Source of the DNA: an uncultured Methanosarcinales archaeon
Lineage (GTDB): Archaea; Nanobdellota; Nanobdellia; Woesearchaeales; UBA11576
DNA: 64,000 bases
NCBI GenBank assembly: GCA_964572875.1
Contig: CAZNGE010000001.1
Location: 24,834 to 88,833 of the forward strand
Reading direction: 5' to 3'
Shown: one piece after another, positions 1 to 30,295 of the stretch
Numbering within the stretch: position 1 is the first letter of the stretch
How the letters are laid out: every line of letters starts with the position of its first letter
The notes under the pieces: model-generated
Seen by the model: only the letters and a program-made list of their open reading frames with translations
Told to the model about the DNA's origin: nothing
Databases searched by the model: none
Made by a program: the position numbers and the translations under genes

Positions 1-2
1 GG

Positions 3-1410
<1,408 letters not shown>

Positions 1411-1453
1411 AACAGCAGAGAGCTTCAGCAAGCATCAGGAAAAGAATATCAAG

Positions 1454-2644
1454 ATGGAACTGCCCACCCTCCATAACATGTACATAGGGAAGAAGCGCGT
1501 CCTAGTCAGGACTGGGTTCGATGTGCCTATAGACGAGAAAGGGAATATCCTGGATGACAGCAGGATCCGCATCTCAGTTCCCACGATAAAATATCTTCTT
1601 GAGCATGGCGCTTCGCAGGTCATTGTCATCACGCACATAGGCAGGCCCAAGGACAAAGAGGCCCACCTGAAGACAGACAGGTTGGCTGCAAAGCTCTCGG
1701 AGCTTATCGGCGCGCAGGTAAAGAAGATAGACAGTCTCGGGGAGAAAGGAATCCCCGCCCCAGAGCAGAGCCGGATCGTGATGCTTGAGAACCTGCGTTT
1801 CGACCCACGGGAGAAGGATAAGGACCCGGAGAAAAGGGATAGTCTCGGAAAGCAGCTCGCATCCCTCGCCGACATATACGTGAATGACTCGTTCTCTACC
1901 TGCCACAGGGACCACGCGTCCATGACATCAGTGCCTAAATTCATCCCGGGCTGCGCAGGGCTGAGCGTTGAACAGGAGGTCTTCACCATCACCAAGGCTC
2001 TGGAAGATCCAGAAAGGCCGTTCATCTCCATCATCGGCGGAGTCAAGGCAGACAAGCTCAACGCGATAGCTAACCTCATAGACAGGGTCGACATGATACT
2101 TGTTGCGGGCGCGCTCGCATTCACCCTCCTGAAACAGTTCGGCAGGGAAGTTGGAAAGACAAAGACAGATACAGAAGGGCTTGCAGGATTCGAAGACCTG
2201 CTGCCCAAGATAAAAGACAATCCGAAAGTCATCCTTCCGGTGGATGCCGTGCTTGCAGACCGGTTCGACAAGGACGCGCAATCCAAGACAGCATCGACAG
2301 ACAGCATGGATCCGGCATGGATGGCGCTCGACATCGGCCCTGAGACGATAAGGATATTCAAGGATAAGCTGGCAGGCGCCAAGACCATAGTCTGGAACGG
2401 GCCGATAGGCGTGTTCGAGTTCGACAGGTTCGCCAATGGCACAAAGGAGATAGCAGAGGCGCTGGCAGATTCAGGCGCGACTGTGATTGTAGGTGGCGGT
2501 GATTCTGGCGCTGCTGTCGAGAAGCTCGGGCTCAAGGAGAAGATGACACTCGTATCATCCGGCGGAGGTGCATCACTGGCCTTGTTTGAGGGCAAGGAGC
2601 TCATAGCTTTAAAAGGTTTGGAACAAAGCATGAAGAAACCATAG
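1454..2644 (+). CDS. pgk: Phosphoglycerate kinase
   Basis: KRVLVRTGFDVPIDEKGNILDDSRIRISVPTIKYLLEHGA and the C-terminal VIVGGGDSGAAV hinge motif. ATG at 1454 (MELPTL). The earlier track start overlaps gap. Confidence 0.93.
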   Translation: MELPTLHNMYIGKKRVLVRTGFDVPIDEKGNILDDSRIRISVPTIKYLLEHGASQVIVITHIGRPKDKEAHLKTDRLAAKLSELIGAQVKKIDSLGEKGIPAPEQSRIVMLENLRFDPREKDKDPEKRDSLGKQLASLADIYVNDSFSTCHRDHASMTSVPKFIPGCAGLSVEQEVFTITKALEDPERPFISIIGGVKADKLNAIANLIDRVDMILVAGALAFTLLKQFGREVGKTKTDTEGLAGFEDLLPKIKDNPKVILPVDAVLADRFDKDAQSKTASTDSMDPAWMALDIGPETIRIFKDKLAGAKTIVWNGPIGVFEFDRFANGTKEIAEALADSGATVIVGGGDSGAAVEKLGLKEKMTLVSSGGGASLALFEGKELIALKGLEQSMKKP

Positions 2645-2679
2645 AAAATTATAAAAGAACACAGATTATTCAGAAGGAC

Positions 2680-3648
2680 ATGGCGAAAAAGAGGAAAGCG
2701 AAGAACAAGAAGGCAAAGTATGATGTCATCGCTGTAGGATCTGCCACCATAGACTGCTTCGTGAACCTGCCTGTCGATTTCAGGAACATCAGGCACGGCT
2801 CGAAACTGCTGATCGAGGACATAAAGCTCCTTACAGGAGGCGGAGCGACAAACGTCGCTGTCGGCCTGAGGCGCCTCGGCCTTAAGGTAGGGTTCATAGG
2901 AGAGGTCGGTGACGACCACTCTGCATACATCGTAAGGCGCGACCTCGAGAAGGAAGGCGTCGATTTCCTTGTCAAGCAGCACTCAAGGCACGAGACCGCC
3001 TACTCAGTGATACTCGAGTCAATGGGAAAGGACCGCGCAATACTCGTTTACAAGGGTGCAAGCAGCTATCTCCATCCTGAAGAGGTCAGGAGCATAAACA
3101 AGGACGCTGCATGGTTCTATTTCTCGTCGATGATGGGAGCATCGCTCAAGACCCTGAACACACTCGCGAACTATGCGAAGAGGAACCGCATCAGGGTGTT
3201 CTTCAACCCGAGCAGCTACACCATAGAGAGATGCAGGAAAGAGATGGACAATATACTTTCAGCCACGACGATAATCTCGGTCAATAAGGAGGAGGCGCAG
3301 GCGCTGCTCGGCAGCAGGTCAGACAGGCCGGAAGAGCTCCTGAAAGGCATGAAGGCCCTCGGCCCTGAAGTATGCATCATGACCGACGGCGAGAATGGAG
3401 CTTATGCGTTCGATGGGACGTCATTCGTCCACCAGGAAGCCAGCAGGATAAGGATTGTGGACACTACCGGCGCAGGGGATTCATTCAACTCAGGGTTCCT
3501 TGGAGGATACCTAATAAACAAGAGACTCAATGATGATAAGAGGCTGAGAGCAGCCATGAAGATGGGTGCGGCAAACGCTAAGTCGGTCATCAGCCATGTA
3601 GGGGCCAAGACGGGCCTGCTTACCAGGAGGAAGATGCTAAGATGCTAG
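2680..3648 (+). CDS. PfkB-family carbohydrate kinase; in this operon context probably an ATP-dependent 6-phosphofructokinase (inference)
   Basis: Ribokinase/PfkB signature DTTGAGDSFNSGFLGGYL and an N-terminal GSATIDCF motif. Position between pgk and fba. RBS AGAAGG. Confidence 0.8.
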   Translation: MAKKRKAKNKKAKYDVIAVGSATIDCFVNLPVDFRNIRHGSKLLIEDIKLLTGGGATNVAVGLRRLGLKVGFIGEVGDDHSAYIVRRDLEKEGVDFLVKQHSRHETAYSVILESMGKDRAILVYKGASSYLHPEEVRSINKDAAWFYFSSMMGASLKTLNTLANYAKRNRIRVFFNPSSYTIERCRKEMDNILSATTIISVNKEEAQALLGSRSDRPEELLKGMKALGPEVCIMTDGENGAYAFDGTSFVHQEASRIRIVDTTGAGDSFNSGFLGGYLINKRLNDDKRLRAAMKMGAANAKSVISHVGAKTGLLTRRKMLRC

Positions 3649-4562
3649 TCACGAACAAGGCGCTCCAGCAGGTTGCGCAGAAGAGGAAGTACGCTGTAGG
3701 TGCATTCAACGTTTATGACATGGAGTCTGTCCAGTCGGTGGTGAAGGCTGCTGAGCTTGAGAGGTCTCCGGCGATCATCGCTACCAGCGAGGGCGCGATA
3801 GAGTATGCAGGTCATGAGTTCATCGCAGACCTGATCAGGCTTGCCGCGGAAAAGTCAAGGATGCCTTTCAGCATGCACCTCGACCATGGCAAGGACATGA
3901 AGATAATAAAAGACTGCATACGTCTGGGCTATACCTCTGTCATGATAGACGCTTCAAAGCATGAGTTCAAGGATAACATAAGGATGACGAGGAAGGTGGT
4001 GGGCATGGCCCACAGGAAAGGGGTCTCTGTCGAGGCTGAGCTGGGAACCATCGGCGGCGTCGAGGACAATGTCTCAGCCAAGACGATCATACTCACAGAG
4101 CCTGATGACGCAAAGGAATTCGTCGGGAAGACCGGATGTGACACCCTCGCGGTCGCGATAGGCACGAGCCATGGCGCTTACAAGTTCGCAGGAAAGTCAA
4201 AGCTCGACATAGCCAGGCTGAAGCTGATAAAGAGGAAAGTGAAGGTCCCTCTCGTTCTGCACGGGGCGTCAGGTATACCGCAGTGGGTGGTCAGGAAAGC
4301 CACTCTTTTCGGTGCGATGCTAGGCAAGGCGAGGGGTGTCTCAGAAGAGGACATAAGAGCGGCTGTCCACAACGGCATCAGCAAGGTCAACATCGACTCG
4401 GACCTGAGGCTTACGTTCGACGCCACAGTCCGGGAAGTGCTGAAGAACAGGCCGGAAGAGTTCGACCCTAGGAAGATCCTCGGCCCCGCAAGGGATGCTA
4501 TCACTGAGATGATAAGGTACAAGATGAGGCTGTTCAGCTCTTCTGGAAAAGTAAAGAGGTAG
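3642..4562 (+). CDS. fba: Fructose-bisphosphate aldolase, class II (metal-dependent)
   Basis: YAVGAFNVYDMESVQSVVKAAE...MHLDHGKD...LHGASG class II FBA/tagatose-bisphosphate aldolase motifs. Overlaps pfkB stop (ATG..TAG). Confidence 0.85.
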   Translation: MLVTNKALQQVAQKRKYAVGAFNVYDMESVQSVVKAAELERSPAIIATSEGAIEYAGHEFIADLIRLAAEKSRMPFSMHLDHGKDMKIIKDCIRLGYTSVMIDASKHEFKDNIRMTRKVVGMAHRKGVSVEAELGTIGGVEDNVSAKTIILTEPDDAKEFVGKTGCDTLAVAIGTSHGAYKFAGKSKLDIARLKLIKRKVKVPLVLHGASGIPQWVVRKATLFGAMLGKARGVSEEDIRAAVHNGISKVNIDSDLRLTFDATVREVLKNRPEEFDPRKILGPARDAITEMIRYKMRLFSSSGKVKR

Positions 4563-4565
4563 AAT

Positions 4566-5231
4566 ATGACAATCATCGTGGTGAATTTCAAGACGTATGC
4601 GCAGGCCACAGGCGAGCGCGCCGTAAAGCTCGCGAAGATATGCGAGAAGGTGGCGAAAGAGAAGAAGATAGACATAATGGTTGCTGTGCAGAACGCAGAC
4701 CTGTTCCATGTATCAAGCGAAGTCTCTATCCCGGTCTTTGCAGAGCATATAGACCCTGTCAAGTACGGCGCCAACACAGGAAAGGACCTTCCCGAAGCGC
4801 TGGTCGAGAACGGCGCGACAGGAGTCCTGATCAACCACTCAGAGGACCAGGATGAGCTTAAGGACATCGAGGGGAGCATAAAGCGCGCGAAAGACATCGG
4901 CCTGAAGACAATTGTCTGCGCCCCGAGCGCTAAGTCGAGCGAGGCTATCGCTGCTTTCGGGCCTGACTTTGTCGCTGTCGAGCCTCCTGAGCTCATCGGG
5001 GGGGACATATCAGTGTCGAAGGCGCAGCCAGGGCTGATATCAGAGACTGTCAAGCTCGTCCATAAGGTAGACGGGAAGATTCCGGTGCTGTGCGGCGCAG
5101 GGATAAAGGACCACGAGGACGTCAGGATAGCGGTGAAGCTTGGCTGTGAAGGCATACTTATCGCGTCCGGCGTGACAAAGGCAGAGGATCCTGAGAAGGC
5201 TCTTCTGGACCTGACAAGGGGGTTTGGATGA
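4566..5231 (+). CDS. tpiA: Triosephosphate isomerase, short archaeal type
   Basis: 221 aa, IVVNFKTY start, GGD/EPPELIGG and AGIKDHEDV motifs typical of the archaeal roughly 220-aa TIM. Confidence 0.85.
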   Translation: MTIIVVNFKTYAQATGERAVKLAKICEKVAKEKKIDIMVAVQNADLFHVSSEVSIPVFAEHIDPVKYGANTGKDLPEALVENGATGVLINHSEDQDELKDIEGSIKRAKDIGLKTIVCAPSAKSSEAIAAFGPDFVAVEPPELIGGDISVSKAQPGLISETVKLVHKVDGKIPVLCGAGIKDHEDVRIAVKLGCEGILIASGVTKAEDPEKALLDLTRGFG

Positions 5232-6436
5232 TGCTGCACCTGGACATATCACATCTGGACATAAGGAGATACTCTTCCATCAAATCAAAGCTGGACAGGA
5301 TAAGGAAGATGGAAGTTCCGGCATTTGAGAAGCACAAGGAAGACATCACAAGGCTTACAGCTACGCTCAAGAAGTACAGGAAGTACAGCAACCTGCTCGT
5401 CATCGGAAACGGCGGATCTAACACATCATTCAGGGCATTCCATCAGGCGCTTGTCCCGATGGACAGCAAGAAGAAGGCGTTCATCCTCACGACAATGGAG
5501 CCTGACCTGATCAGCGAGCTGAAGGAGGTTTTTCCGAAAAGAAAGACGCTTGTCATGCCCATCAGCAAATCAGGCACCACGATAGGGGTAATAGAGTCCT
5601 TGCTCGCTTTCGACGGGTACAGGATGCTGCCGGTGACATCGCCAGGAACTGGTGCGCTTTCAGTGATAGCTGAGAAAGAGGGTTTCGAGATGGTTCCGCA
5701 CGCGCCTGTCGGCGGACGTTACTCAGGGCTTACCGCCTCTGCATTCGCGCCTGCCCTGTTCTTCGGCATAGATGTAGAGACCATAGACAACGGAGCCAGG
5801 ACAACGTATAAGTACTGCAATCCGCAGGTGCACATAGACAAGAACCCTGCGTTGCAGCTCGCGGCTTCGCTCTACCTGCTCGACAAGAAGGGATATGACG
5901 AGATATTCTGCCCAATATACTCATCGAAGCTTTCAGGGTTCCAGAACCTCATAGTCCAGCTCATGCATGAGACTGTAGGCAAGAAGAAGAAAGGCCAGAC
6001 CATATTCTGCGCTGACGCCCCCGAGTCCCAGCACCACACCAACCAGCGATTTTTCGGCGGGAAGAGGAACGTGCTGGGTGTCTTCCTGACTGTCGAGAAC
6101 CAGCAGGACAATGACACGAAGGTCAAGGTCCCGCCTTCGATAAGGCAGATCAAGGCGCGTGACGGCACCATAGGAGATGTCAACGGCGTGCCTTATGCCA
6201 AGGCCCTTGAGTACGAGTTCAGGGGAACCTATGAGGATGCGATAGACAAGAAGATACCTGTCGCGCACATAAGCCTCGACAAGGTCTCTGCATTCAGTGT
6301 AGGTGAACTGATGGCATTCTGGCATTACGTTGCAGTATATTCCGCGTGGCTGCGGGACCTCAACCCGTTTGACCAGCCGCAGGTCGAGAGCTCCAAGGAC
6401 ATCAGCTTCAGGCTGAGTAGAATGCACAAGGGATGA
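5228..6436 (+). CDS. pgi: Glucose-6-phosphate isomerase (conventional PGI family)
   Basis: VIGNGGS and ISKSGTT motifs (PGI GIGGS / SKSGTT signatures). ATGA overlap with tpi. The exact start (5228 or a later Met) is uncertain. Confidence 0.72.
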   Translation: MMLHLDISHLDIRRYSSIKSKLDRIRKMEVPAFEKHKEDITRLTATLKKYRKYSNLLVIGNGGSNTSFRAFHQALVPMDSKKKAFILTTMEPDLISELKEVFPKRKTLVMPISKSGTTIGVIESLLAFDGYRMLPVTSPGTGALSVIAEKEGFEMVPHAPVGGRYSGLTASAFAPALFFGIDVETIDNGARTTYKYCNPQVHIDKNPALQLAASLYLLDKKGYDEIFCPIYSSKLSGFQNLIVQLMHETVGKKKKGQTIFCADAPESQHHTNQRFFGGKRNVLGVFLTVENQQDNDTKVKVPPSIRQIKARDGTIGDVNGVPYAKALEYEFRGTYEDAIDKKIPVAHISLDKVSAFSVGELMAFWHYVAVYSAWLRDLNPFDQPQVESSKDISFRLSRMHKG

Positions 6437-6509: not shown

Positions 6510-7790
6510 TCACACCCAATTGACCTTCAGGAAATGCACCGAGCATGAGAAGCAGGGGTCATAGGCCCTTATCAGCTTTTCTATCTCGAAGACGATCTTC
6601 TTATCTCCGAGCTTTATTACAGAAGGCAGGAAAGCCCTTATGTCCTCCTGCATGTTGAGCAGGCTCTGGCAGGTGGGGGTTATGATGTTGGCCTTTGTTA
6701 TGTCCCCTTTCTCGTTTATCTCATAGTCATGTATCAGGATGCCCCTCGGAGCTTCCGTCACTGCTATGCCTCTTGACTTCCTGAACTTCATCTCCGCAGG
6801 GGTCTCTTCCTGGACCTTGAGCTTGCGGCAGATCTCCATGCACCTGTCGATGCTGTGCACCAGCTCCACCGCCTGCGCGAAGTTGTTCATGAAAGGATTC
6901 ATTATAGGGAGCTTGACCTTTGCGTCGGTGAGCAGCTTCTTGGCGTTCTTAGACAGGAACTTGTAATTGTTGTTGAGCCTGGCAAGGGCACCGACCATGT
7001 ACCTCTTGTCCTTCTTGACGACGAAATTCGCTGTCGAATAAGGCTCATGGTACTCCTCCAGGTATTTCAGGTAATCGTCTTTCTTGAACTTGCTGGACTG
7101 GGAGACCAGGCTCCCGTATAAGGTAGGATAAGTGCTGCCGTCTTGGAGCGAGAAGTATTCTGTCTCATTCTCAAACTTAGGGCATTTCAGTTTTGTGAAC
7201 AGGCGGGCGGTCGCTGCAGCGTCCGCCTGGGCGTCCTGCAGCCTTCTCCTGAAATTATCTATCTGCTCCTGCTCAGGTATCTTCAGCATCCCTCCGACCT
7301 GGGCAGACACGGGATGCATGTCCCTGCCTCCGATGGTCGATATGATATCATTGCCGAGCTTGGTGAGCCTGAGTGCCCTCAGGACATCGTTCTTGAACTT
7401 GGGTCCAAGAGCGAGGGCTGATTCCGCACCGACATAGTCGGGCAGCGCTAGGAAATAGAGGTGCGTCGCATGGCTCCGTATCCTCTCTCCGAGAACTATG
7501 AGCTCCCTGAGCATCTTTGTCTGCTCAGAGACCTTTATGCCGAGCGCGTTCTCGACCGCCTGTATCGAGCACATGGTGTGGATGCAGCTGCATATGCCAC
7601 ATATCCTAGATGTCAGCTCAGGAGCCTCATAGCATTTCCTTCCCTTTAGCAGACCCTCGAAGTATCTTGATCCCTCTATCGCGCCGAGTTCACACCGCTT
7701 TACCTCATTCCCGTCGATGGACAGGGTGAGGTTGGCGTGACCCTCTATCTTTGTTATGTGCTCGAGCTTTATTGTCTTTGACATCTTCAA
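6510..7790 (-). CDS. hydA: [NiFe] hydrogenase large (alpha) subunit, group 3
   Basis: N-terminal RICGICS and C-terminal DPCFSCSVH Ni-Fe ligand motifs. Short C-terminal extension (FLKVNWV) consistent with protease processing. Confidence 0.9.
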   Translation of the reverse strand: MKMSKTIKLEHITKIEGHANLTLSIDGNEVKRCELGAIEGSRYFEGLLKGRKCYEAPELTSRICGICSCIHTMCSIQAVENALGIKVSEQTKMLRELIVLGERIRSHATHLYFLALPDYVGAESALALGPKFKNDVLRALRLTKLGNDIISTIGGRDMHPVSAQVGGMLKIPEQEQIDNFRRRLQDAQADAAATARLFTKLKCPKFENETEYFSLQDGSTYPTLYGSLVSQSSKFKKDDYLKYLEEYHEPYSTANFVVKKDKRYMVGALARLNNNYKFLSKNAKKLLTDAKVKLPIMNPFMNNFAQAVELVHSIDRCMEICRKLKVQEETPAEMKFRKSRGIAVTEAPRGILIHDYEINEKGDITKANIITPTCQSLLNMQEDIRAFLPSVIKLGDKKIVFEIEKLIRAYDPCFSCSVHFLKVNWV

Positions 7791-7805
7791 AAATCTCCTA
7801 CAGTG

Positions 7806-9029
7806 CTATTTCTTCTTGAGCTTCATCCTGCTGAAGAATGATGCCGGTTTCTTGGGCTTTTTCGGCGCCACTTTCTTTGGTGCTTTGTTCTTGACCTTAT
7901 TTTTGACGCAGGTTTTCTTATTTGCAGGCGTTTTCTTTGTTTTCTTCTTCACTGCATTTTTCTTGGCATTCCTCCTGGCAGGCTTCTTCTTGACCCTCTT
8001 CTTCAGCGCTTTCTTCCTTGAAGGATGGCTCTTGGCTTTCCTCTTTGTCTTCTTCACTTTACTGGCTTTCTTCCCCTTCCTGGCCTTTTTGGGCCTCTTC
8101 AGTTTCTTAGCATGCTTCTTCATCTTCTTGTCATGCTTCTTCATCTTCTTGTCATGCTTCTTCATCTTCTTGTCATGCTTCTTCATCTTCTTGGCAGGCT
8201 TTTTCTTCGCTTTATCCTTCTTAGGCCTTATCTTGACCGGCTTGACCATTTTCTGCTTGGGCGGTTTCTCTATCATGAGCCCTGCGAATGTCCTGAGCCT
8301 CTGCTTTATGTGCTCTTTGGTGAATCCTTTCTCTTCAAGAAGCTTTATTATGAGCGGGATGTTCGCGTCAGGTGTAGGTCCTCTGCATCCCCAGCACTCA
8401 AGCCCGCCGTTAGTGCATATGGAATCACAGCCTCCTCTGGTTATGGGGCCAAGGCACATCTTTCCATCGTCGAGAAGACAGCGGTTCTGGTTCAGCCTGC
8501 ACTCGAAGCATACAGGCTTGTCATAATCAACAGGGGTCTTGCCCAGAAGCACGTCCTTTATGAAGTTTAATACCTGCTTCTTGTCTGGAGGGCATCCAGG
8601 TATGTAATGATCCACAGTCACATAATCCTTTATGGGCGTGGCCGGCATGTCCCTCAGTTCCTTGAGCTTCTCATAGACGAGACCTGAATATTTGGAGGGG
8701 TCGATGAAGTTCCTGTATGCGGGGATGCATCCTGTGCAGGCACAGGAACCGAACGCCACAAGAACCTTTGCCCTGCTCCGCACTGATTTTAGGATATCGA
8801 GATCATCATTGCTCGCCACGAGACCTTCTACGAACGCAATGTCTAACTGCTTGTCATCCTTGATTTCCTTCACGAACCTGAATGCCTTTATGTCTATATG
8901 CGCCGCGAGGTCAAGCAGCTCCTCTTCATTGAACAGGAAACTCAGCAGGCACCCATTGCAGCCCGTCAGGTCATAAAACGCTACTGCCGGTTTGTTGCTC
9001 TTATTAGGTCTCGCCATTTTATGGATCAA
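7806..9029 (-). CDS. hydD: [NiFe] hydrogenase small (delta) subunit with an unusual 150-aa Lys-rich C-terminal extension
   Basis: N-terminal AFYDLTGCNGC and GSCACTGCIP FeS-binding regions typical of a group-3 small subunit. Canonical length is about 260 aa, here 407 aa with a KKMKKHD repeat tail. Confidence 0.85.
   Translation of the reverse strand: MIHKMARPNKSNKPAVAFYDLTGCNGCLLSFLFNEEELLDLAAHIDIKAFRFVKEIKDDKQLDIAFVEGLVASNDDLDILKSVRSRAKVLVAFGSCACTGCIPAYRNFIDPSKYSGLVYEKLKELRDMPATPIKDYVTVDHYIPGCPPDKKQVLNFIKDVLLGKTPVDYDKPVCFECRLNQNRCLLDDGKMCLGPITRGGCDSICTNGGLECWGCRGPTPDANIPLIIKLLEEKGFTKEHIKQRLRTFAGLMIEKPPKQKMVKPVKIRPKKDKAKKKPAKKMKKHDKKMKKHDKKMKKHDKKMKKHAKKLKRPKKARKGKKASKVKKTKRKAKSHPSRKKALKKRVKKKPARRNAKKNAVKKKTKKTPANKKTCVKNKVKNKAPKKVAPKKPKKPASFFSRMKLKKK
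8111..8194 (-). repeat. Four tandem 21-nt repeats (catgcttcttcatcttcttgt on + strand) encoding (KKMKKHD)x4 within the hydD tail
   Basis: Direct reading of 8111..8194 shows four consecutive identical or near-identical 21-mers. Confidence 0.9.
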
Positions 9030-9865
9030 TCGTTCTTGTACTTGCTTATCTCGTCATACCTGAACACTGGGCCGTCCAGGCAGGTGTATTTCCCGTGTAT
9101 CATGCAGTGGCCGCACACGCCGAGTGCGCAGTTCATCAGCCGTTCCGTGCTTATGTACATCTGGTCCTCCTTGAATCCCTTGCTCTTGAGTATGTCTATG
9201 GTTATCTTCATCATCATAGGCGGCCCGCATATGAAAACTATCTTGTTTTCCGGGTTGAGCTTTGCCTTGTCGAGAAGGTTGGTGATGAAGCACACGTCGC
9301 AGGATATGCTGGCCTTCTTGGGATTCTTGTCGACGCTGAGGTTGAGAAGGTAGTTCTTCTTCCACTGCTTCATATCATCCTTGAACAGGATATCCTCCGG
9401 CGTCCTGAAGCCGAAGTATATCATGACATCGCCGAAGTCGTTCCTGTGCTTGTCGACATACGCAAGTATTCCCTTGAGGGGGGCGACCCCGCTTCCGCCG
9501 CCTATGAGTACGAGGTTCTTGCCGAAGAACCTGTCCATGGGGTATCCTTTGCCACATGGTCCCCTGACGTACAGAGAGTCGCCTTTCTTCAGGTCTGCCA
9601 GCGCCTTGGTGACATTGCCCACCTCCCTTATGTTGAGGTCGAGATGATCGTCAGAGCAGGAAGCGACTGATATAGGCGCCTCGCCTATGCCGGGGAGAGT
9701 GACCTGGAAGAACTGGCCTGGATCGTAGTGTGACTTCAGCGCCAGCCGTATCAGGAAGCAATCCGAACTCTCCCGCCTGTAGAGCGTTATCTTCGCCGGC
9801 TGAGGCAGGTAAGGGTTTCTCATCTTCCCGCCGGGTTCATCAGTCCTTGTCTTTGTCCTTGGCAT
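9026..9865 (-). CDS. hydG: Hydrogenase gamma subunit (FAD/NAD(P)-binding, 2Fe-2S; PyrK/sulfite-reductase-like)
   Basis: GIGEAPIS, GGGSGVAPL and C-terminal CxxGxCxxC...C motifs. Stop overlaps the hydD start. Confidence 0.85.
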   Translation of the reverse strand: MPRTKTRTDEPGGKMRNPYLPQPAKITLYRRESSDCFLIRLALKSHYDPGQFFQVTLPGIGEAPISVASCSDDHLDLNIREVGNVTKALADLKKGDSLYVRGPCGKGYPMDRFFGKNLVLIGGGSGVAPLKGILAYVDKHRNDFGDVMIYFGFRTPEDILFKDDMKQWKKNYLLNLSVDKNPKKASISCDVCFITNLLDKAKLNPENKIVFICGPPMMMKITIDILKSKGFKEDQMYISTERLMNCALGVCGHCMIHGKYTCLDGPVFRYDEISKYKND

Positions 9866-9902
9866 GAGTTTATCCTCAATAGGTAATCATGAATCCTTTT
9901 CA

Positions 9903-10880
9903 TCAATCCTTCATATCATTCAGTATATTAACGAAATTTATCCTTGTCGGGCATCCTCTTATGCATCTCCCGCAGCCTGTGCATAGGTTCATGCCATGCT
10001 TCTCCCTGAAGTACTGCAGCTGATGGTATATCCTGTGCTTGAACCTGTCTTCCCTCGAGTCCCTGAAGACATGTCCTCCCGCGACTTTCGTGAAGCAGGT
10101 CAGCTGGCATGACGCCCAGTTCCTCTTTCGTTCCACCTTGCTGAGCTTGGAGTCTATCTCATCATATAGGTCAAAGCAGTAGCAGCTCGGGCATAGCGTG
10201 ACGCATGCCGCGCAGCTGAAGCAGATATCTACCCCTTTCTTCCAGTCAGGGCTGTTATAGTATGCTGCGATGTCCCTCTTCTCGAGCTTGAGGTCGGTCT
10301 CCATGCGGCGGTCCTCAGGCGTGAGGAAAAGGTCCGTATCCCAGAAATATTTCCTGTACCTGTCCACGAACGACCTGCCCTTCTCAGACCCGATCTCCAC
10401 GAGGTATGCATCCTCTTTCTCATAGAGCATGAGGTCGTAATAGTCACCGAGGTCCATAGATGAGCAGAAGCAGTATTCGTCGAAAGGCTCCTTGCAGTGG
10501 TAGCCGATAAGGACCGTCCGCTCCCTCTCCTCGGTATAGTACGGGTCTTCTGTCTCTTTCATGAACATTAGGTCCTGGCGTTTTATCGAGTTGAGGTCGC
10601 ACCTCTTAAGGCCCAGCATCACCCTCTGCTTCTTCTCCGGCTGGAGCTCAGGCACAGAGACCTTGCCCTTGTCGAACGACATAAGGGTCTGCCGCTTCTT
10701 GAAGAAGAAATGCTTGACAGGGAAGTATGTATGGAGGTCAAGATGTATCGCTGAAACGTCTTTTATGGTCTCGAACCTGGACTCGTCTGTCATGACCGGC
10801 GCGACAAGCTCGTTGTATCTCATGACATCTGACAAGAAATCATTGAATGACGACTTGTTTATCTTCAGCATATATACCAC
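9903..10880 (-). CDS. hydB: Hydrogenase beta subunit (4Fe-4S; AsrA/HydB-like)
   Basis: CFSCAACVTLCPSCYC and CTGCGRCIRGCP ferredoxin-type clusters. First gene of hydBGDA order. Confidence 0.8.
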   Translation of the reverse strand: MVYMLKINKSSFNDFLSDVMRYNELVAPVMTDESRFETIKDVSAIHLDLHTYFPVKHFFFKKRQTLMSFDKGKVSVPELQPEKKQRVMLGLKRCDLNSIKRQDLMFMKETEDPYYTEERERTVLIGYHCKEPFDEYCFCSSMDLGDYYDLMLYEKEDAYLVEIGSEKGRSFVDRYRKYFWDTDLFLTPEDRRMETDLKLEKRDIAAYYNSPDWKKGVDICFSCAACVTLCPSCYCFDLYDEIDSKLSKVERKRNWASCQLTCFTKVAGGHVFRDSREDRFKHRIYHQLQYFREKHGMNLCTGCGRCIRGCPTRINFVNILNDMKD

Positions 10881-11028
10881 TTTTTATTTTATGAGCAGTG
10901 CCACCGCGAATTCACGAGGCGCTTTAGCAACAACAATGCGGGCGTTGTCGGGGGACGCCCCATCCGGGGAGACAGCCCCTTCAGCGGATTATTCGCACGC
11001 CGAGCCTCGCGTGGCGCTGCGACTTTTT

Positions 11029-11361
11029 CTACTCGACTTCCACTTCTTTCAGCACGATATCCTTCCCTTCGATGACTTCAGGGACTGCCTTGCACTTGGG
11101 ACAGAGATATACTGAATGGCCATGGCTGTGCTCCAGTATGTCCGGCTCTCCCTCGTATCCGCAGGCGCATCTGACTTTTGCCTTCCTCGTGACTATCTTG
11201 ACATGCCAATCAGGCACCATACTGCTTAGAGTCTTATTGAGCTCTTCTGCTGGAAGATGCCCCAGATCGCCCACTTCAACGGTTATACCCTTTATTTTCC
11301 CTTGTTTCACATGCTCCTGTGCCACTTCTATGATGTCTTTGCTTATAAGGGTATCATGCAT
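11029..11361 (-). CDS. hypA: Hydrogenase nickel-insertion protein HypA
   Basis: MHDTLISKDIIEVAQE start, CACG...CPKC zinc finger, 110 aa. Track start 11373 is TTG. ATG is at 11361. Confidence 0.8.
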   Translation of the reverse strand: MHDTLISKDIIEVAQEHVKQGKIKGITVEVGDLGHLPAEELNKTLSSMVPDWHVKIVTRKAKVRCACGYEGEPDILEHSHGHSVYLCPKCKAVPEVIEGKDIVLKEVEVE

Positions 11362-11509
11362 CCAGGAAACCAAACAAGCCTTTCTATATAAATATTATCG
11401 TGATTTTAGCGGTTTGTGTAATCATCAAAAAGTCGTGAAAATAAGAGGTGACCATAAGAGGGTGCGTATGAGAAGATATGAGAAAAAAATTATGGAAAAA
11501 TGATGACAT

Positions 11510-15808: not shown

Positions 15809-16237
15809 ATGCTCCACATCCTGGCATTCGGCAATCCGTACCTAAAAGAGGACAGTCTCGCAGTCAGGGTAGCTGACCTTATCATAGAGGACAAAGTGCC
15901 CGGCATTGAGATAGTGAAATGCATCTCTCCTGACGAGCTGCTGAACTACTTTGACAAGGATTTCGTGATACTCGATGTTGTCAAGGACGCGGATGATGTC
16001 ATGATTATTGATGACATAGAAAGGCTGCAGTCAGGAAAGATAGTATCGCTCCACGACTTTGACCTCGGATTCTTCCTGAAGCTGATGAAGGAGACAGGTA
16101 GGATGGAGAAGATAATGATAATAGGCATCCCTCAGCAGGGCGACATAAAAGAGATTAAAGAGAAAGTCAAGAAAAAGATTCTGGGCCTGCTGGACAGCCT
16201 CAATCCTCCTGCCAGTCCAGCTGCAGGAAATGCGTAG
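15809..16237 (+). CDS. Hydrogenase maturation endopeptidase (HycI/FrhD family)
   Basis: ILAFGNPYLKEDSLAVRVADLI and SLHDFDLG motifs, about 140 aa, adjacent to the second hydrogenase. Confidence 0.75.
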   Translation: MLHILAFGNPYLKEDSLAVRVADLIIEDKVPGIEIVKCISPDELLNYFDKDFVILDVVKDADDVMIIDDIERLQSGKIVSLHDFDLGFFLKLMKETGRMEKIMIIGIPQQGDIKEIKEKVKKKILGLLDSLNPPASPAAGNA

Positions 16238-17489
16238 AGCAGGAAATGCAGGGGTCGTAAGCTCTTATCAGCTTCTCTATGTCGAGCTTTATCTCTTCCT
16301 GGCCCTTGTCAAGTATCGAGGGAAGGAATGCCTTTATCGACTCTTCTACATGCTGAAGGCTCTGCGTGGTCGGGGTGGTTATGTCCGCGAACGTGCAGTA
16401 CCCCTCATCATCGAACTTGTAATGGTGGAATAGTATTCCCCTCGGTGCCTCGCAAGCGCCGATCCCTTCGCATGAGCATGGCTTGACATCGAACTCGACA
16501 GGCTTCTCCGATTTCAGCTCGAGGTTGGAGAGTATAATGATGGACCTGTTTATGCCTTCCAGGATCTCGATTGCCTGCGCGATTATGTTCATGAAAGGAT
16601 TGGACTTATTCTCGCAGACCTGCCTCGCGTACTGCTTGGCCTCATTCGACAGGAACTCGAAATTGTTGCAGAGCCGCGCCAGCGCTCCGACGAGATAGCT
16701 CTTTCCCTCCTGTGTCGCAAACTCCGCGGTGCTTCCTTCGCGCAGGTATTCCTTGAAGTGCTGCTTGTAGTCCTTTGTCGGGAAGCATGTTCCCCTCTCG
16801 CACCGCACGATCCTGTCTGAGTAGAAATACGTGCCTCCTGACAGCGCGAACTTGGGCGCGTCATTCTCGAACTCCGGATACGAGAGCCCTGAGAAGAGCT
16901 TGACCGTCTCTACAGCGTCGACCTTGCACTGCTTGAGCTCCTCGACGAGCGCATCAATCATGGTCTTGTCAGGTATCCGTGAGAACCCGCCGATGACACA
17001 GCCGATAGGATGGACGTCCCTGCCTGCGAGCGTGAATACTATATGGTTGCCGAGCCTCTTGAGCCGCAGCGCCCTCTCGACGAGCGCTTTGTGCTTCTTC
17101 GCCAGGCCTATCGCGCTCCCGACGCCGGAATAGTCCGGCAGGGTTAGGAAGTAGAGGTGCAGAGCATGGCTCTGTATTATGCCCCCTATGTTGAGGACTT
17201 CGCGAAGCTTACGGGTCTGCTCAGATACCTTGATGCCGAACGCGTCCTCTATCGCCTTTATCGAAGTTATGGCATGGACCACGGAGCATATCCCGCATAT
17301 TCTCGACGATATATGGCTCAGGTCATTGAACTTCTTGCCCTTGAGTATGCCTTCGAAGAACCTCGCGCCCTCGAGCACGTTGAGCTTGGCCTCTTCCACC
17401 TTGCCGCCGGATATCTTCACGTGCAGCTTCGCATGACCCTCTATCTTGGTTATATGGTCGAGCTCAAGCTTTCTTGGCATCTTTTTCAC
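16200..17489 (-). CDS. Second [NiFe] hydrogenase large subunit, group 3 (paralog of hydA)
   Basis: RICGICS and DPCISCSTH motifs. 429 aa. Readily alignable to 6510..7790. Confidence 0.9.
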   Translation of the reverse strand: MKKMPRKLELDHITKIEGHAKLHVKISGGKVEEAKLNVLEGARFFEGILKGKKFNDLSHISSRICGICSVVHAITSIKAIEDAFGIKVSEQTRKLREVLNIGGIIQSHALHLYFLTLPDYSGVGSAIGLAKKHKALVERALRLKRLGNHIVFTLAGRDVHPIGCVIGGFSRIPDKTMIDALVEELKQCKVDAVETVKLFSGLSYPEFENDAPKFALSGGTYFYSDRIVRCERGTCFPTKDYKQHFKEYLREGSTAEFATQEGKSYLVGALARLCNNFEFLSNEAKQYARQVCENKSNPFMNIIAQAIEILEGINRSIIILSNLELKSEKPVEFDVKPCSCEGIGACEAPRGILFHHYKFDDEGYCTFADITTPTTQSLQHVEESIKAFLPSILDKGQEEIKLDIEKLIRAYDPCISCSTHFLQLDWQED

Positions 17490-18273
17490 CTTTTGATTTC
17501 AGAATGGCATCCTTTACCTTCTGCTCGCCGAACTTACTCAGCTTGTTCATGACATCCTTCTCATCGAGGCCCCAGCTCTTGAACAACGCGACTTCTGCAG
17601 GGAAGTTTGCGGTGTCGAGCGGCCCCCTGCACATTATGCAGGGTATGTTCTGCTTAATGCATACCGCGTCGCAGCCTCCGCGCGTGAGCGCTCCCATGCA
17701 CACTGTCTTCTCGCGCAGGAAGCAGTCCTTTCCCCTGCGCGGGCATTGGTTGCATACAGGGCCCTTGAACTCCTCGAACTTCTTCCCTTCGAGATAGCCG
17801 TTGATGAAGTCCATGAACTCCTTCTTGAGTATCGGGCAGCCATGGAGATAATGGTCCACCTTGACGAATCGGTCTATGGGCTGCGCCTCTATTGAGTCCG
17901 AGAGCATCTGCTGGTTATAGATATACTTGCCCAGCTCCTTGCTCTCTATGAAGTTGCGCATCGCAGGAATCCCCCCGTAGCATGCGCAGGCCCCGAGTGC
18001 GACAACAAGCCGGGATTTCTTTCTTATCTGCTTGAGCTTGCTGACTTCCCTCTTCGTGGTTATCGCACCTTCGACAAAAGCGATGTCGAACTCAGCTTCC
18101 TTGTTCTTCTCCTTTATGAGATTGAAATACTTTATATCGAGCTTCTCCAGAAGCCTGCTGAGATCATCAAGAAAGAGCACTGTGAACCCGCACCCCTCGC
18201 AGCACGTGAAGCAGAAAAATCCGACTATGGGCTTTGCATGCTTTGGGCCTGAAGCAGGAGATTTTTTTGGCAT
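17464..18273 (-). CDS. Second [NiFe] hydrogenase small subunit, group 3
   Basis: FFCFTCCEGCG and GACACYGGIP cluster motifs. 269 aa. Overlaps the large subunit start. Confidence 0.85.
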   Translation of the reverse strand: MPKKSPASGPKHAKPIVGFFCFTCCEGCGFTVLFLDDLSRLLEKLDIKYFNLIKEKNKEAEFDIAFVEGAITTKREVSKLKQIRKKSRLVVALGACACYGGIPAMRNFIESKELGKYIYNQQMLSDSIEAQPIDRFVKVDHYLHGCPILKKEFMDFINGYLEGKKFEEFKGPVCNQCPRRGKDCFLREKTVCMGALTRGGCDAVCIKQNIPCIMCRGPLDTANFPAEVALFKSWGLDEKDVMNKLSKFGEQKVKDAILKSKGEKDAKKA

Positions 18274-18572: not shown

Positions 18573-19808
18573 ATGAGAGTGTTGATGTTCGGTTGGGAGT
18601 TCCCCCCCTTCAAGAGCGGCGGTCTAGGTACGGCCTGCTATGACCTAACCAAGGGTCTCTCGAACCAGGGCGTAAACGTCACCTTTGTCATGCCTGTCGC
18701 TCCTGAAGGAGCCAATGCGCAGTTCGTCAAGCTCGTGGGTGCCAACAACTTCTCAAAAAATGTCAAACTCCGCAAAATAAGCTCTGTTCTCACACCATAC
18801 CAATCATTCAGCTCGTATTCCGAAGCGCTCAGCAAAGTCAGGGCATCATCGAATTACACGACCTCTAAGGATAAGGTATATGGCAATAATCTCTATGAAG
18901 AAGTATACCGTTACTCCATCGCTGCTGCTGACATAGCTGAGGAAGAGGAGTTCGATGTTATCCATGTCCATGACTGGATGACCTACAGGGCAGGCATAAA
19001 CGCCAAGGCCGCTTCTGGCAAGCCATTGGTCGCACATATCCATGCGACAGAGTTCGACCGCACAGGAGGCAATCCCAACCAGATAATAAGCCACATGGAA
19101 TATCAGGGCCTCAGGGCTGCGGATGTAGTGATAGCCAACTCGAATTTCACCAAGCAGAACGTAATCAAGCATTACAGCATCGATCCGGATAAGATAAAGG
19201 TCGTTCACTGGGGAATCGATCCCGAGAACCCATATTATGGGATCAATCATAAGTCTCCTTTCGATGATGAAAAGATCGTACTTTTCCTCGGCAGGATAAC
19301 CATACAGAAAGGTCCTGATTACTTTGTTGAGGCAGCCAACAATGTGCTGAAGTATGTGCCGAATACCAAGTTTGTGGTCGCTGGCTCCGGAGACATGTTC
19401 GAGCGCATGATCAACAGGGCAGACGAGCTGGGGATACTCAACAACTTCATATTCACAGGATTCCTCAAGGGCGCTGACGTCCACAAGGCATTCCAGATGG
19501 CAGACCTTTATGTGATGCCTTCAGTTTCCGAGCCTTTCGGCCTCGTCGCGCTCGAATCGCTAAAGAACGGCACGCCGATACTGATATCAAAGCAGTCAGG
19601 GGTCAGCGAGGTCGTGAATCACGCCCTGAAGGTCGATTTCTGGGATGTGGCTGAGATGACCAACAAGATAGTCAATGTGCTGAAGTATCCTGAACTGCAT
19701 TCAGAGCTAAAGGAAAACAGCTTCAGGGAAGTACAGGGCTTCAACCTTGACGAACCGGCCAGGAAGACCAGGGAGATCTACGAGCAGGCTATAATTATCA
19801 AGAGGTAA
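18573..19808 (+). CDS. GT-B retaining glycosyltransferase (GT4/GT5-like; archaeal glycogen/alpha-glucan synthase-like)
   Basis: MRVLMFGWEFPPFKSGGLG N-terminus and C-terminal EPFGLVALESL motif of GT4/GT5 synthases. Adjacent to GH57. Confidence 0.75.
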   Translation: MRVLMFGWEFPPFKSGGLGTACYDLTKGLSNQGVNVTFVMPVAPEGANAQFVKLVGANNFSKNVKLRKISSVLTPYQSFSSYSEALSKVRASSNYTTSKDKVYGNNLYEEVYRYSIAAADIAEEEEFDVIHVHDWMTYRAGINAKAASGKPLVAHIHATEFDRTGGNPNQIISHMEYQGLRAADVVIANSNFTKQNVIKHYSIDPDKIKVVHWGIDPENPYYGINHKSPFDDEKIVLFLGRITIQKGPDYFVEAANNVLKYVPNTKFVVAGSGDMFERMINRADELGILNNFIFTGFLKGADVHKAFQMADLYVMPSVSEPFGLVALESLKNGTPILISKQSGVSEVVNHALKVDFWDVAEMTNKIVNVLKYPELHSELKENSFREVQGFNLDEPARKTREIYEQAIIIKR

Positions 19809-19816
19809 TCGAAAAA

Positions 19817-21064
19817 ATGGTGAGCGTGTGTTTTTATTTCCAGGTGCATCAGCCTTTCAGGATGAGGCGTTACCCTATCTTTGATATAGGGAAGAAGCGG
19901 AACTATTTTGACGACGAGAAGAACATAGAGGTGCTCAGGAAGGTCGCGAGGAAGTGCTACCTCCCTGCGAACAGCCTCATGCTGGATCTTCTTGAGAGGC
20001 ATCCCGGGTTCAGGATATCCTATTCTTTGTCAGGTGTTTTTATTGAGCAGTGCGAGAAGTGGGCTCCCGAAGTGCTGGAGAGCTTCAGGAAGCTTGTGGA
20101 TACTGGACGTGTCGAGATTCTATCTGAGACTTACTACCACTCTCTCGCATACCTTTTTTCTAAGGATGAGTTCAAGGAGCAGGTGCTTTTGCACAGGAAG
20201 AAGATTGAGGAGGTGTTCGGCGTCACGCCAAGAGTCTTCAGGAACACAGAGCTGATATACAACAATGAGATCGCGAACTACATCGAAGGAATGGGCTTCA
20301 AGGGAATCATAGCCGAGGGTTGGGACCCTATCCTGGGCTGGAAGAGCGCGAACTTCGTTTACAGGCCAAAGACGACCAGGAATATCAGGCTCCTGCTCAA
20401 GAACTACCGCCTGTCTGATGACATAGCGTTCCGCTTCTCGAACAGGGGATGGGCGGAATGGCCCCTGACGACAGATAAGTTCTGCCAGTGGGTGAACAGA
20501 TACAACGGCAGCGGCGAGTGCATCAACCTGTTCATGGACTACGAGACGATAGGGGAGCACCAGTGGGAGGACACAGGCATATTCGATTTCCTGCGACACC
20601 TGCCAGGCGAGCTGCTGAAGCACCCTGACAACAGCTTCAAGACACCGTCAGAGCTGATAGACACGCACGAGGCAAAAGACGAGATAGACTGCCACCACAT
20701 GATATCCTGGGCAGACATAGAGCGCGACCTGTCGGCATGGCTCGGCAACAGGATCCAGCAGTCATCCGCGAACAGGCTCTACTCATTGGAGAAGGACATA
20801 AAAAATTCAGGAGATCAGCAGCTGCTGGACGACTGGCGCAAATTACAGACATCAGATCATTTCTACTACATGTGCACCAAATGGTTCAATGATGGCGACG
20901 TGCATAAGTACTTCAACCCTTATGACTCGCCATACGACTCTTTCATGAATTTCATGAACGTGATGAATGACATAGTGATACGGCTGAAATCAGGGACTAA
21001 GACGGCATCAGGTGAGGCTGCTGCTGGCGAGGTGAAGGGCGATGACATGGGCAAGGCATTATAA
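19817..21064 (+). CDS. Glycoside hydrolase family 57 protein (alpha-amylase/branching-enzyme family)
   Basis: FYFQVHQPFR region-I motif of GH57 and overall GH57-like N-terminal domain. 415 aa. Confidence 0.72.
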   Translation: MVSVCFYFQVHQPFRMRRYPIFDIGKKRNYFDDEKNIEVLRKVARKCYLPANSLMLDLLERHPGFRISYSLSGVFIEQCEKWAPEVLESFRKLVDTGRVEILSETYYHSLAYLFSKDEFKEQVLLHRKKIEEVFGVTPRVFRNTELIYNNEIANYIEGMGFKGIIAEGWDPILGWKSANFVYRPKTTRNIRLLLKNYRLSDDIAFRFSNRGWAEWPLTTDKFCQWVNRYNGSGECINLFMDYETIGEHQWEDTGIFDFLRHLPGELLKHPDNSFKTPSELIDTHEAKDEIDCHHMISWADIERDLSAWLGNRIQQSSANRLYSLEKDIKNSGDQQLLDDWRKLQTSDHFYYMCTKWFNDGDVHKYFNPYDSPYDSFMNFMNVMNDIVIRLKSGTKTASGEAAAGEVKGDDMGKAL

Positions 21065-21119
21065 GAAGAGGAAATCAGCCGCAAGGCCTATCGTGAAAAG
21101 GATGGAACGGAGGGAGGCC

Positions 21120-21437
21120 ATGATGAAGAAGAGTGCAAAAAACAAAGAGGAGAGCGCTAAGCGCGTATCATCTAAGAAGGAGGAGATATCCCCTGAGAAA
21201 TATTTCATACTCAAGGACGGGACCCATATCAAGAGCATAAAGGAGCTTGCCATGATGATGGACAGCATGAGCGATGACAGCTTCAGCTTCCACGTCAATG
21301 AGGAGAAGAATGATTTCGCCAACTGGATAAGGGACGTGTTCGGCAAAGAGGATCTTGCTGACTCATTGCTTGCGCTGAAGTGCAGGAAGGAGAACCAGAT
21401 AGCGCTGCTCAAGCATGCGCTGCACGACAGGATATAG
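21120..21437 (+). CDS. Hypothetical basic protein sharing a novel approximately 65-aa domain with the next gene (paralog A)
   Basis: Strong SD GGAGGGAGG before ATG 21120. Domain YFILKDGTHIKSIKEL...FHVNEEKNDFANWIRDV is shared with 21493..22356. Confidence 0.5.
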   Translation: MMKKSAKNKEESAKRVSSKKEEISPEKYFILKDGTHIKSIKELAMMMDSMSDDSFSFHVNEEKNDFANWIRDVFGKEDLADSLLALKCRKENQIALLKHALHDRI

Positions 21438-21492
21438 GATCAATAATATCAGTGATGATATGGAAAAGATAGAGGCAAACAAGGTGCTATAG

Positions 21493-23138: not shown

Positions 23139-23200
23139 GATATCATAGGATCATAGTCTCAACTCAGAAAGAAAAGTACTCATCTGTATCCGTTGGGGGA

Positions 23201-25042: not shown

Positions 25043-25070
25043 GGATATGTTTAGGTAAGGAGATGCTAAA

Positions 25071-26033: not shown

Positions 26034-26071
26034 TAAAAATCCCCCACACCCAGCCAATACTGGTGATAATC

Positions 26072-30145: not shown

Positions 30146-30295
30146 GGAGGCTCTAGAGCCATGATTCTGCAGTCTCATCTGCCAGGATTACCCATCCCCA
30201 GACCTTCTGTTACCACTTAACAGAGACAACAAAACGAAACATTTATATATTAGTTCTGAACCTTATATCATTAGTTGGTTGGAGGTGGCTGAGAG

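Follow-up and report, generated by a model that had tools for sequence, protein, structure and literature searches.

The hydrogenase operon and the core of HydD

We have analyzed a stretch of 64,000 nucleotides (nt) of contig CAZNGE010000001.1 from archaeal assembly GCA_964572875.1, referred to here as the window, which contains an operon for a [NiFe]-hydrogenase. The genes lie in the order hypA-hydB-hydG-hydD-hydA on the minus strand over 6510..11373, and the same order, with hypA in the same position, is found in the orthologous loci L001 and L003-L005. Our subject is the small subunit HydD, in which an Fe-S core is followed by a long, lysine-rich C-terminal tail. The coordinates of all these features are collected in Table 1.

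Table 1. Genes, protein segments and basic extensions discussed in the text. Positions are those of the window, except where an L number gives the locus; aa, amino acids; dN/dS, ratio of nonsynonymous to synonymous substitution rates.
Feature	Position	Strand	Remarks
hydD, delta (small) subunit of sulfhydrogenase-type [NiFe]-hydrogenase	7806..9017	-	403 aa from ATG at 9017
Conserved Fe-S core of HydD, residues 1-249	8271..9017	-	confident AlphaFold2 model, conserved Cys, dN/dS 0.066
Polycationic C-terminal tail of HydD, residues 250-403, predicted disordered	7809..8270	-	composition, AlphaFold2, homologues, dN/dS
Conserved proximal tail segment EKPPKQKMVKPVKIRPKKDKAKKKPA, residues 250-275	8193..8270	-	near-identical in P0002; EKPxLKxVKP across the clade
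In-frame 21-nt tandem repeat, KKMKKHD x3 + KKMKKHA	8109..8192	-	perfect periodicity 8111..8193 (83 nt)
Conserved amphipathic C-terminal tip ASFFSRMKLKKK, residues 392-403	7809..7844	-	motif in 31/33 tails
hydA, [NiFe] large subunit	6510..7784	-	Pfam NiFeSe_Hases; NCBIfam HydA/ShyA E=2e-85
hydG, FAD/NAD(P)-binding gamma subunit	9026..9865	-	Pfam NAD_binding_1, DHODB_Fe-S_bind, FAD_binding_6; NCBIfam HydG/ShyC
hydB, Fe-S beta subunit	9903..10880	-	Pfam Fer4_22; NCBIfam ShyB/HydB
hypA, nickel-insertion maturation factor	11029..11373	-	Pfam HypA E=4e-11; first gene of conserved cluster
HydG genes with K-rich N-extensions	L017:2702-3640, L021:7053-7952, L045:6952-7959, L054:5877-6977		
HydA gene with K-rich N-extension	L035:8744-10210		
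HydD genes with K-rich N-extensions	L008:7794-9353, L022:7776-8762, L061:7800-8789		

The hydD reading frame ends with TAG at 7806..7808. An alternative TTG start at 9029 would give an open reading frame (ORF) of 7806..9029(-) that overlaps the stop codon of hydG. The 403-residue product is identical to database protein P0001, which is encoded on a 190-kb NCBI contig. It matches the Pfam family Oxidored_q6 (PF01058; NuoB-like) with E=4e-26. In NCBIfam it fits the ShyD and HydD models best (E=6e-58 and 4e-53), with scores of 196 and 180 bits against equivalog cut-offs of 460 and 500. Judged by these scores, the hydD product is a divergent member of the family and not an equivalog of these models, which are tuned to the Thermococcales orthologues. 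Residues 8-247 align with the delta chains of Pyrococcus sulfhydrogenase I (PDB 9e15_A and 9nez_A) with E about 1e-50. Cysteines C142, C170, C173, C180, C188, C197, C201, C208 and C211 are invariant across 52 homologues, and C20, C23, C92 and C97 are kept in at least 90% of them. The core contains 8.8% lysine and has a net charge of +1, and the N-terminus (MARPNKSNKPAVAFYDL) contains no twin-arginine (Tat) motif. An earlier note on this DNA, made from the sequence, had described a normal group-3 small-subunit core; the Pfam, NCBIfam and PDB matches bear this out, as does the surrounding operon.

In its four-gene architecture, its small-subunit core and its Fe-S cysteines the enzyme is like the group 3b enzymes SHI (HydBGDA) and SHII (ShyBCDA) of Pyrococcus furiosus. 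Group 3b hydrogenases are regarded as soluble and cytoplasmic, and those of Woesearchaeota are considered central to fermentative redox balance, possibly with hand-off of H2 to partner organisms. We classify the enzyme as sulfhydrogenase-type and probably group 3b-like, on the best NCBIfam matches of hydA together with the literature on Woesearchaeota, where group 3b hydrogenases have already been reported in a paper that makes no mention of a tail (PMC8421398).

The ATG of hydA at 7784 lies 21 nt past the hydD stop codon and an alternative TTG at 7790 lies 15 nt past it, with a GGAG sequence at 7795..7798. The spacing between the two genes differs among orthologous loci, being 4 nt in L003, 30-31 nt in L001 and 114 nt in L004, with an overlap in L005.

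Composition, descent and repeats of the tail

Beyond the core HydD continues for 154 residues, of which 71 (46%) are lysine. Lysine and arginine together make up 52%, aspartate and glutamate 3%, alanine 9% and proline 8%, and the net charge is +75. The extension of about 150 residues and some 45% lysine reported in the earlier note is therefore confirmed by counting. Known sulfhydrogenase delta subunits, by contrast, are chains of 256-266 residues that end 7-35 residues past the core, where the HydD of the window adds its 154 polylysine-rich residues and their tip. An AlphaFold2 run with a 52-sequence alignment gave a confident core and a tail that is mostly coil. The block-mean predicted local distance difference test score (pLDDT, over 10 residues) is 61-65 for residues 251-270 and 39-56 from about residue 271 onwards. 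We read the low-scoring tail as a predicted intrinsically disordered region. Pfam scans of three tails, taken up to E=10, returned only noise, with no Linker_histone, Hc1/Hc2 or other family, and the scan of the full hydD product gave no match of linker-histone type.

Homologues were compared as a set of the 120 best matches, in which the 33 closest clusters (core identity at least 60%) are mostly labelled Woesearchaeota; all the sequences come from metagenome or single-cell assemblies. Every one of the 33 clusters has a tail, of 79-288 residues with 30-59% lysine and at most 7% acidic residues. The remaining 87 homologues end 7-35 residues beyond the core, a length measured for 65 of them and judged for the others from total lengths of 249-277 residues and their visible C-termini. 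In a neighbour-joining tree of the cores, drawn with no support values, the tail-bearers group together in a single clade that contains no other homologue. When one genome was taken per GTDB species, giving 80 loci, nine had the tail, and these were the nine most similar to the query (one of them, L007, is a single-cell amplified genome); the other 71 had none.

The closest orthologue, L001, is 84% identical, and its insertions and deletions relative to the window are in multiples of three. In this comparison the core has a dN/dS of 0.066 and the tail one of 0.28 (0.38 in its middle, 0.12 for its two ends together), at equal dS. No frameshift or premature stop codon occurs in any of the 33 clusters. 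The open frame in 33 clusters, the in-frame insertions and deletions and the dN/dS of 0.28 bear out the earlier reading of the tail as translated, and the position of hydA shortly past the stop codon of the tail and the avoidance of long A-runs (see below) are further signs of translation and selection. As judged from reading frames and substitution rates, the tail is thereby shown to be translated and under selection, and its distribution, as read from the tree of cores, shows it to have been gained once in a Woesearchaeota lineage and kept since. The earlier note had called the extension unusual and had proposed looking for it in orthologues. The extension is real, but its presence in the 33 clusters and nine species shows it to be neither an isolated nor a recent acquisition; it is an old trait shared by an entire clade of Woesearchaeota. 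Literature searches on lysine-rich tails, both for hydrogenase small subunits and for DPANN archaea, gave no description of such a tail. The novelty is in the appendage, which is conserved and unusually extreme, on a core metabolic enzyme, and not in a new enzyme. The tail accounts for the 'hypothetical protein' labels and the inflated lengths of these subunits in annotation.

Conservation is greatest at the two ends of the tail. At the distal end the motif (K/S)-S-F-F/L-x-x-M/L-K-x-K-L-K-K-K, with the hydrophobic positions generalized as phi, stands directly ahead of the stop codon in 31 of the 33 tails; of the other two, one comes from a truncated record. It reads PASFFSRMKLKKK in the window and KKSFVGMLKGKLKKK, KKSFLSMLKGRFKK and KKGFFGMLNKLKKK in other tails. 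Bulky hydrophobic residues make up a fraction of 0.19-0.31 of the last 16 residues in 31 of the 33, against about 0.05 in mid-tail, and HydD of the window has just four in its last 16. Their spacing at i, i+1, i+4/5 and i+8 would place them on a single face of a helix. Between the two ends the sequence varies with lineage, while the composition is kept at 30-59% lysine with almost no acidic residues.

Within this variable middle lies a tandem repeat with a unit of 21 nt. The unit, CATGCTTCTTCATCTTCTTGT, is exact at 8111, 8132 and 8153, and a fourth copy at 8174..8194 deviates at its last base, with G for T. The earlier note had counted four perfect copies; three are exact and the fourth is off by one base, so that the encoded heptads are those listed in Table 1. 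Tandem Repeats Finder reports 8096..8205 with a period of 21, 5.2 copies, 92% matches and a score of 171; its copy count is higher because degenerate copies on either side are counted in. Only 28 of the 154 tail residues belong to the repeat. Perfect tandem repeats are present in just six of the 33 related tails, and that of the window (27 residues) is in the longest class, compared with 30 residues in P0007; given how few tails have such repeats and that this is among the longest, it is not a chance occurrence.

The copy number varies between close relatives. There are three heptads in P0122 and in locus L002, four in the window and P0001, and five in P0121. P0121 and P0122 are two further members of the 90%-identity cluster of P0001, from JGI metagenomes. 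P0122 has one D-to-N change along with its three heptads, and all other residues of both proteins match P0001; the five-copy allele of P0121 is known from the protein record alone. At the DNA level, L002 (contig Ga0307424_1034139) matches the window over about 540 nt apart from two differences, both in the repeat: it has exactly one 21-nt unit fewer, and one G is replaced by A. In L001, the closest orthologue, only one unit is present, in a degenerate form, AKMINMHAKKIRKP. This supports recent and ongoing slippage, and the recent expansion proposed in the earlier note, together with the variation in copy number that it had suggested looking for, is upheld. Other tails have in-frame repeats of their own, of 11 residues in P0007, 5 in P0017, 7 in P0024, 33/66 nt in L005 and 9-27 nt in L001, with periods that are mostly multiples of three. 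From these lineage-specific repeats it follows that the middles of the tails are continually rebuilt by repeat expansion and decay while their composition is held. The tail thus offers a natural case of a disordered region in which selection holds composition and termini while the interior is remade by slippage visible between circulating variants.

The lysines of the tail are encoded by 51 AAG and 20 AAA codons, as in the core, and the AAA-AAA dicodon is absent. The longest run of A is 5 nt, with P about 0.03 relative to shuffled lysine codons, and in eight orthologues the avoidance of A-runs has the same direction and is weak. A ribosome-stalling or slippery poly(A) tract is ruled out by the AAG-biased lysines, the absence of AAA-AAA and A-runs of no more than 5 nt. 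Opposite the tail there is an ORF rich in phenylalanine and leucine at 7756..8526(+). It is open because the plus strand is very poor in A here (AT skew -0.5 to -0.7), and the earlier dismissal of this ORF as an artefact is justified by that composition.

Lysine-rich extensions are found on other subunits of the same enzyme. In the 80 species loci, about 900 crude gene calls were searched for lysine-rich, acid-poor windows of 30 residues. They occur in 16 of 278 hydrogenase subunits compared with 8 of 629 neighboring genes, a count that ignores shared ancestry and uses crude ORF calls. Apart from the C-terminal tails of HydD, those on the hydrogenase are N-terminal extensions of HydG, HydA or HydD (Table 1), each beginning at an ATG upstream of the conserved core. 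They are 35-75 residues long and occur in Woesearchaeota and Nanoarchaeota lineages whose HydD has no C-terminal tail. These observations suggest that this enzyme has gained a basic appendage several times, at different termini.

Possible roles of the tail

What might a +75 appendage bind? The net charges of the rest of the complex are +11 for HydA, +9 for HydG, 0 for HydB and +1 for the HydD core. Since the remaining complex is not acidic, the partner must be an external polyanion. Charge neutralization, with the tail folding onto an acidic complex, is ruled out by subunits that are neutral to basic.

We tentatively favor, with somewhat less than even confidence, a role for the tail as a polycationic tether with an amphipathic tip that places the enzyme at the membrane or another anionic surface. 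The tip would insert in-plane into the cytoplasmic face of the membrane and the polylysine stretch would bind anionic head groups, so that an NAD(P)H-linked enzyme that evolves H2, and that would otherwise be soluble, would stay at the edge of a fermentative cell of very small size. There would be one +75 tail per holoenzyme, and oligomerization would make the binding multivalent. Slippage would tune the length and charge of the tail without switching the gene off.

Several known systems offer partial parallels. The C-terminal domain of linker histone H1, Chlamydia Hc1, the C-terminal domain of mycobacterial HupB, and AlgP are disordered, repeat-built polycations rich in lysine, alanine and proline, similar in length to the HydD tail. 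The tail has this same polycationic profile, and differs in that H1-like tails are attached to DNA-binding globular domains, where that of HydD has no Pfam match and ends in a hydrophobic motif. The small subunits of group 1 [NiFe]-hydrogenases (E. coli HyaA and HybO) attach a Tat-exported, periplasmic enzyme to the membrane by a C-terminal transmembrane helix. HydD is unlike these, having neither a Tat signal nor a hydrophobic stretch but only an amphipathic tip on a cytoplasmic enzyme. MinD binds the membrane by a C-terminal amphipathic helix, a single copy of which is weak and requires multivalency (PMC8155659). The tip of HydD is reminiscent of the targeting sequence of MinD (and of FtsA and MreB): it stands at the extreme C-terminus, has lysine or arginine flanks, and spaces its hydrophobic residues at i, i+1, i+4/5 and i+8, as in a putative short helix. 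Unlike MinD, it follows 80-290 residues of polycation on a redox enzyme, and the hydrophobic moment does not discriminate. In exported proteins of Plasmodium, expansion of lysine-rich repeats produces length-dependent targeting to the cell periphery that varies between strains (PMC5207086). The tail is like this GARP/KAHRP family in its lysine-rich, low-complexity repeats that arise by expansion and vary in length, although those proteins are eukaryotic, act at the cytoskeleton and membrane of the host erythrocyte, and have no homology to HydD. By analogy, the tail most resembles either a polybasic-plus-amphipathic membrane-targeting module or a polycation of H1 type.

The second of these likenesses underlies a rather doubtful but serious alternative, that the tail works like the C-terminal tail of a linker histone or HU protein and attaches the hydrogenase to nucleic acid, either DNA or rRNA, or to RNA-protein condensates inside a tiny and crowded cell. 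Its 46% lysine, 9% alanine and 8% proline, with lysine far above arginine, are H1-like, as are repeats of PKK/AKK type among the tails (for example AKKAAKPAKKAAKP in P0024). Basic tails are also present on the SpoU rRNA methylase at 41317..42243 and on a small unannotated protein (L035:12497-12913) whose N-terminal part is possibly a winged-helix DNA-binding domain, and the tip-less N-terminal extensions on other subunits suggest that charge alone may matter. Yet nucleic-acid binding gives the conserved hydrophobic tip no role, no linker-histone, Hc1/Hc2 or other family was matched in the Pfam scans, the subunit that bears the tail is an Fe-S redox protein not known to act on nucleic acids, and there is no obvious gain in parking an H2-evolving enzyme on DNA. 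The earlier note had suggested nucleic-acid or membrane association; the conserved, predicted amphipathic tip, on which it did not remark, tilts us modestly toward the membrane. A tip that binds a specific partner or compartment shell, with the lysine-rich part as a mere spacer, would also make use of the architecture of folded domain, variable disordered linker and conserved short terminal helix. Several tips (SFVGMLKGK, SLIGMLKGK) may loosely resemble the encapsulin cargo-loading motif, TVGSLKG. However, among the approximately 45 ORFs of the 64-kb window scanned with Pfam or NCBIfam there is no encapsulin, no bacterial-microcompartment (BMC) shell protein and no other candidate partner gene. 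For three orthologues, precomputed Pfam annotation covering about 20 kb around each shows none of these either, and a neutral spacer does not need 30-59% lysine and less than 7% acidic residues throughout a clade. We consider such a leash improbable, and the idea of an encapsulation peptide was rejected, no shell gene having been found in the window or the orthologous loci.

It is also unlikely that the tail is a tolerated low-complexity expansion, in which the AAG-rich, slippage-prone 3' end of hydD grew by drift with no specific function. Such an origin would account for a middle without sequence conservation, a length that ranges over 79-288 residues, a polymorphic copy number and a rate of evolution about four times that of the core. 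It fits poorly with a tail that every member of the clade retains, at core identities down to about 60%, with a dN/dS well under 1 (and 0.12 at the ends), with a conserved tip directly ahead of the stop codon, with the lack of frameshifts or premature stops in 33 clusters, and with similar appendages on other subunits of the same enzyme. The earlier note had raised a contingency locus. In such a locus, slippage in a phase-variable repeat would toggle hydD or the downstream hydA. The copy-number polymorphism stands, with a perfect tandem repeat observed in 3, 4 and 5 copies, but on/off switching does not. Because the unit is seven codons, slippage adds or removes seven residues per event and cannot switch the gene off; all three alleles encode a full-length protein, and the repeat periods of other tails are mostly multiples of three. 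We regard phase variation as very improbable. Scarcely credible, finally, is an artefact in which the tail is untranslated or the repeat is an assembly error. Such a concern arises from the metagenomic or single-cell origin of all the data. Against it, many studies contributed the 33 independent clusters and nine GTDB species in which the same open frame recurs, and outside the repeat independent assemblies do not differ by a single base. The repeat tract, at 63-105 nt, would probably fit within a typical short read, and the tail is under purifying selection.

A number of points weigh against the membrane or anionic-surface tether. The mean hydrophobic moment of the tip is 0.57, while the 95th percentile of windows within the tails is 0.66, and many windows with a lysine/valine periodicity score as high; MinD sequences score low on the same scale. 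The tip holds just four or five hydrophobic residues, and AlphaFold2 places only a three-residue helix there, with low confidence. To our knowledge, a polylysine linker of 100-290 residues far exceeds any known polybasic membrane-targeting region. The lysine, alanine and proline content of the tail is equally like that of linker-histone tails. The N-terminal lysine-rich extensions have no obvious amphipathic tip, and therefore charge alone may be the common denominator. To these must be added the lack of support values on the tree of cores and the limits of the extension count given above.

More speculatively, and with a good deal of doubt, a long polycationic appendage on the NAD(P)H-linked hydrogenase may be a recurrent, selected device in DPANN archaea, at the C-terminus of HydD here and at the N-termini of HydG, HydA and HydD elsewhere. 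In ultrasmall cells it would bring the enzyme that chiefly disposes of reductant to the membrane, or to a surface of host contact or of the nucleoid, with slippage tuning the localization rapidly. A conserved +75 tail together with independent basic extensions implies that ultrasmall cells care about the place or the binding partner of this enzyme. If true, this would be an archaeal case of low-complexity repeat expansion making a targeting signal on a core metabolic enzyme, and the tail is a testable handle on the spatial organization of metabolism in DPANN archaea.

Other basic termini and the genomic neighborhood

Three other proteins of the window have charged or amphipathic termini. A MinD/ParA-family ATPase at 22353..23138(+) (AAA_31, CbiA, ParA) ends in RFMSRVASIFRR, which is amphipathic and resembles both the membrane-targeting helix of MinD and the hydrogenase tail tip SFFSRMKLKKK. 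The SpoU-family rRNA methylase (minus strand) has a catalytic domain to about residue 153 that is followed by approximately 150 residues, ending in a basic low-complexity stretch rich in lysine, serine, proline and threonine (...PKPKPKAKSSPGKK...AKAKKRQTHRGVKR), a further basic and putatively disordered tail in this genome, here on an enzyme that binds RNA. A SprT-like metalloprotease homologue at 44139..44888(-) ends in a lysine- and glutamate-rich segment and then a hydrophobic tip (...EKKRKGVFGWF), and may be another case of a charged linker with a hydrophobic end.

The tailed loci share a gene order in which PEP synthase and hypA-hydBGDA are followed by convergent genes for PGI, TIM, FBP aldolase, PfkB kinase, PGK, GAPDH and glycogen synthase. 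Tail-less relatives retain hydBGDA but not the glycolytic neighbors. This synteny was seen over 1..6436 and 18573..31935 of the window and in L003-L005 and L007-L012. The window also encodes GH57 and GH15 enzymes, a glycogen debranching enzyme, phosphoglucomutase and a ROK kinase, making up a glycogen-to-H2 gene island. The gene context fits an enzyme that sheds glycolytic NAD(P)H as H2, a means of disposal that has been proposed for the group 3b hydrogenases of Woesearchaeota (PMC8421398).

There is a second HydD/HydA pair of sulfhydrogenase type at 16200..18273(-), with a HydD-like protein of 269 residues at 17464..18273 and a HydA-like protein of 429 residues at 16200..17489. It has no adjacent hydB or hydG and no long tail, and the same extra pair is found upstream in L005. 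A paralogue with only alpha and delta subunits beside the tailed enzyme suggests divided roles. In L004 (GCA_043819495.1) a group-4-like membrane-bound hydrogenase module lies at 1-3868, about 6 kb upstream of the tailed operon, comprising a Complex1_49kDa/NiFeSe large subunit, a NuoH-like subunit, a ferredoxin subunit, HycI and HypC. L003 (GCA_964563755.1) has a LAGLIDADG homing-endonuclease ORF at 4460-5506, right after PEP synthase and with three further genes between it and hypA; neither the window nor any other orthologous locus contains it.

At 61374..62456(+) the window, which apparently belongs to a DPANN archaeon, contains a strong match to Pfam MATCAP (E=8e-55), a family named for a eukaryotic microtubule-associated tyrosine carboxypeptidase. 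Public records under the title 'uncultured Methanosarcinales archaeon', and a few under Dehalococcoidia or Deltaproteobacteria titles, bear hydBGDA loci of Woesearchaeota type; such record titles are probably taxonomic mislabels, or the contigs are mis-binned. Among these loci, L008 (CAYOQS010000004.1) and L012 (CAZLYC010000002.1) have a tailed HydD and the same synteny.

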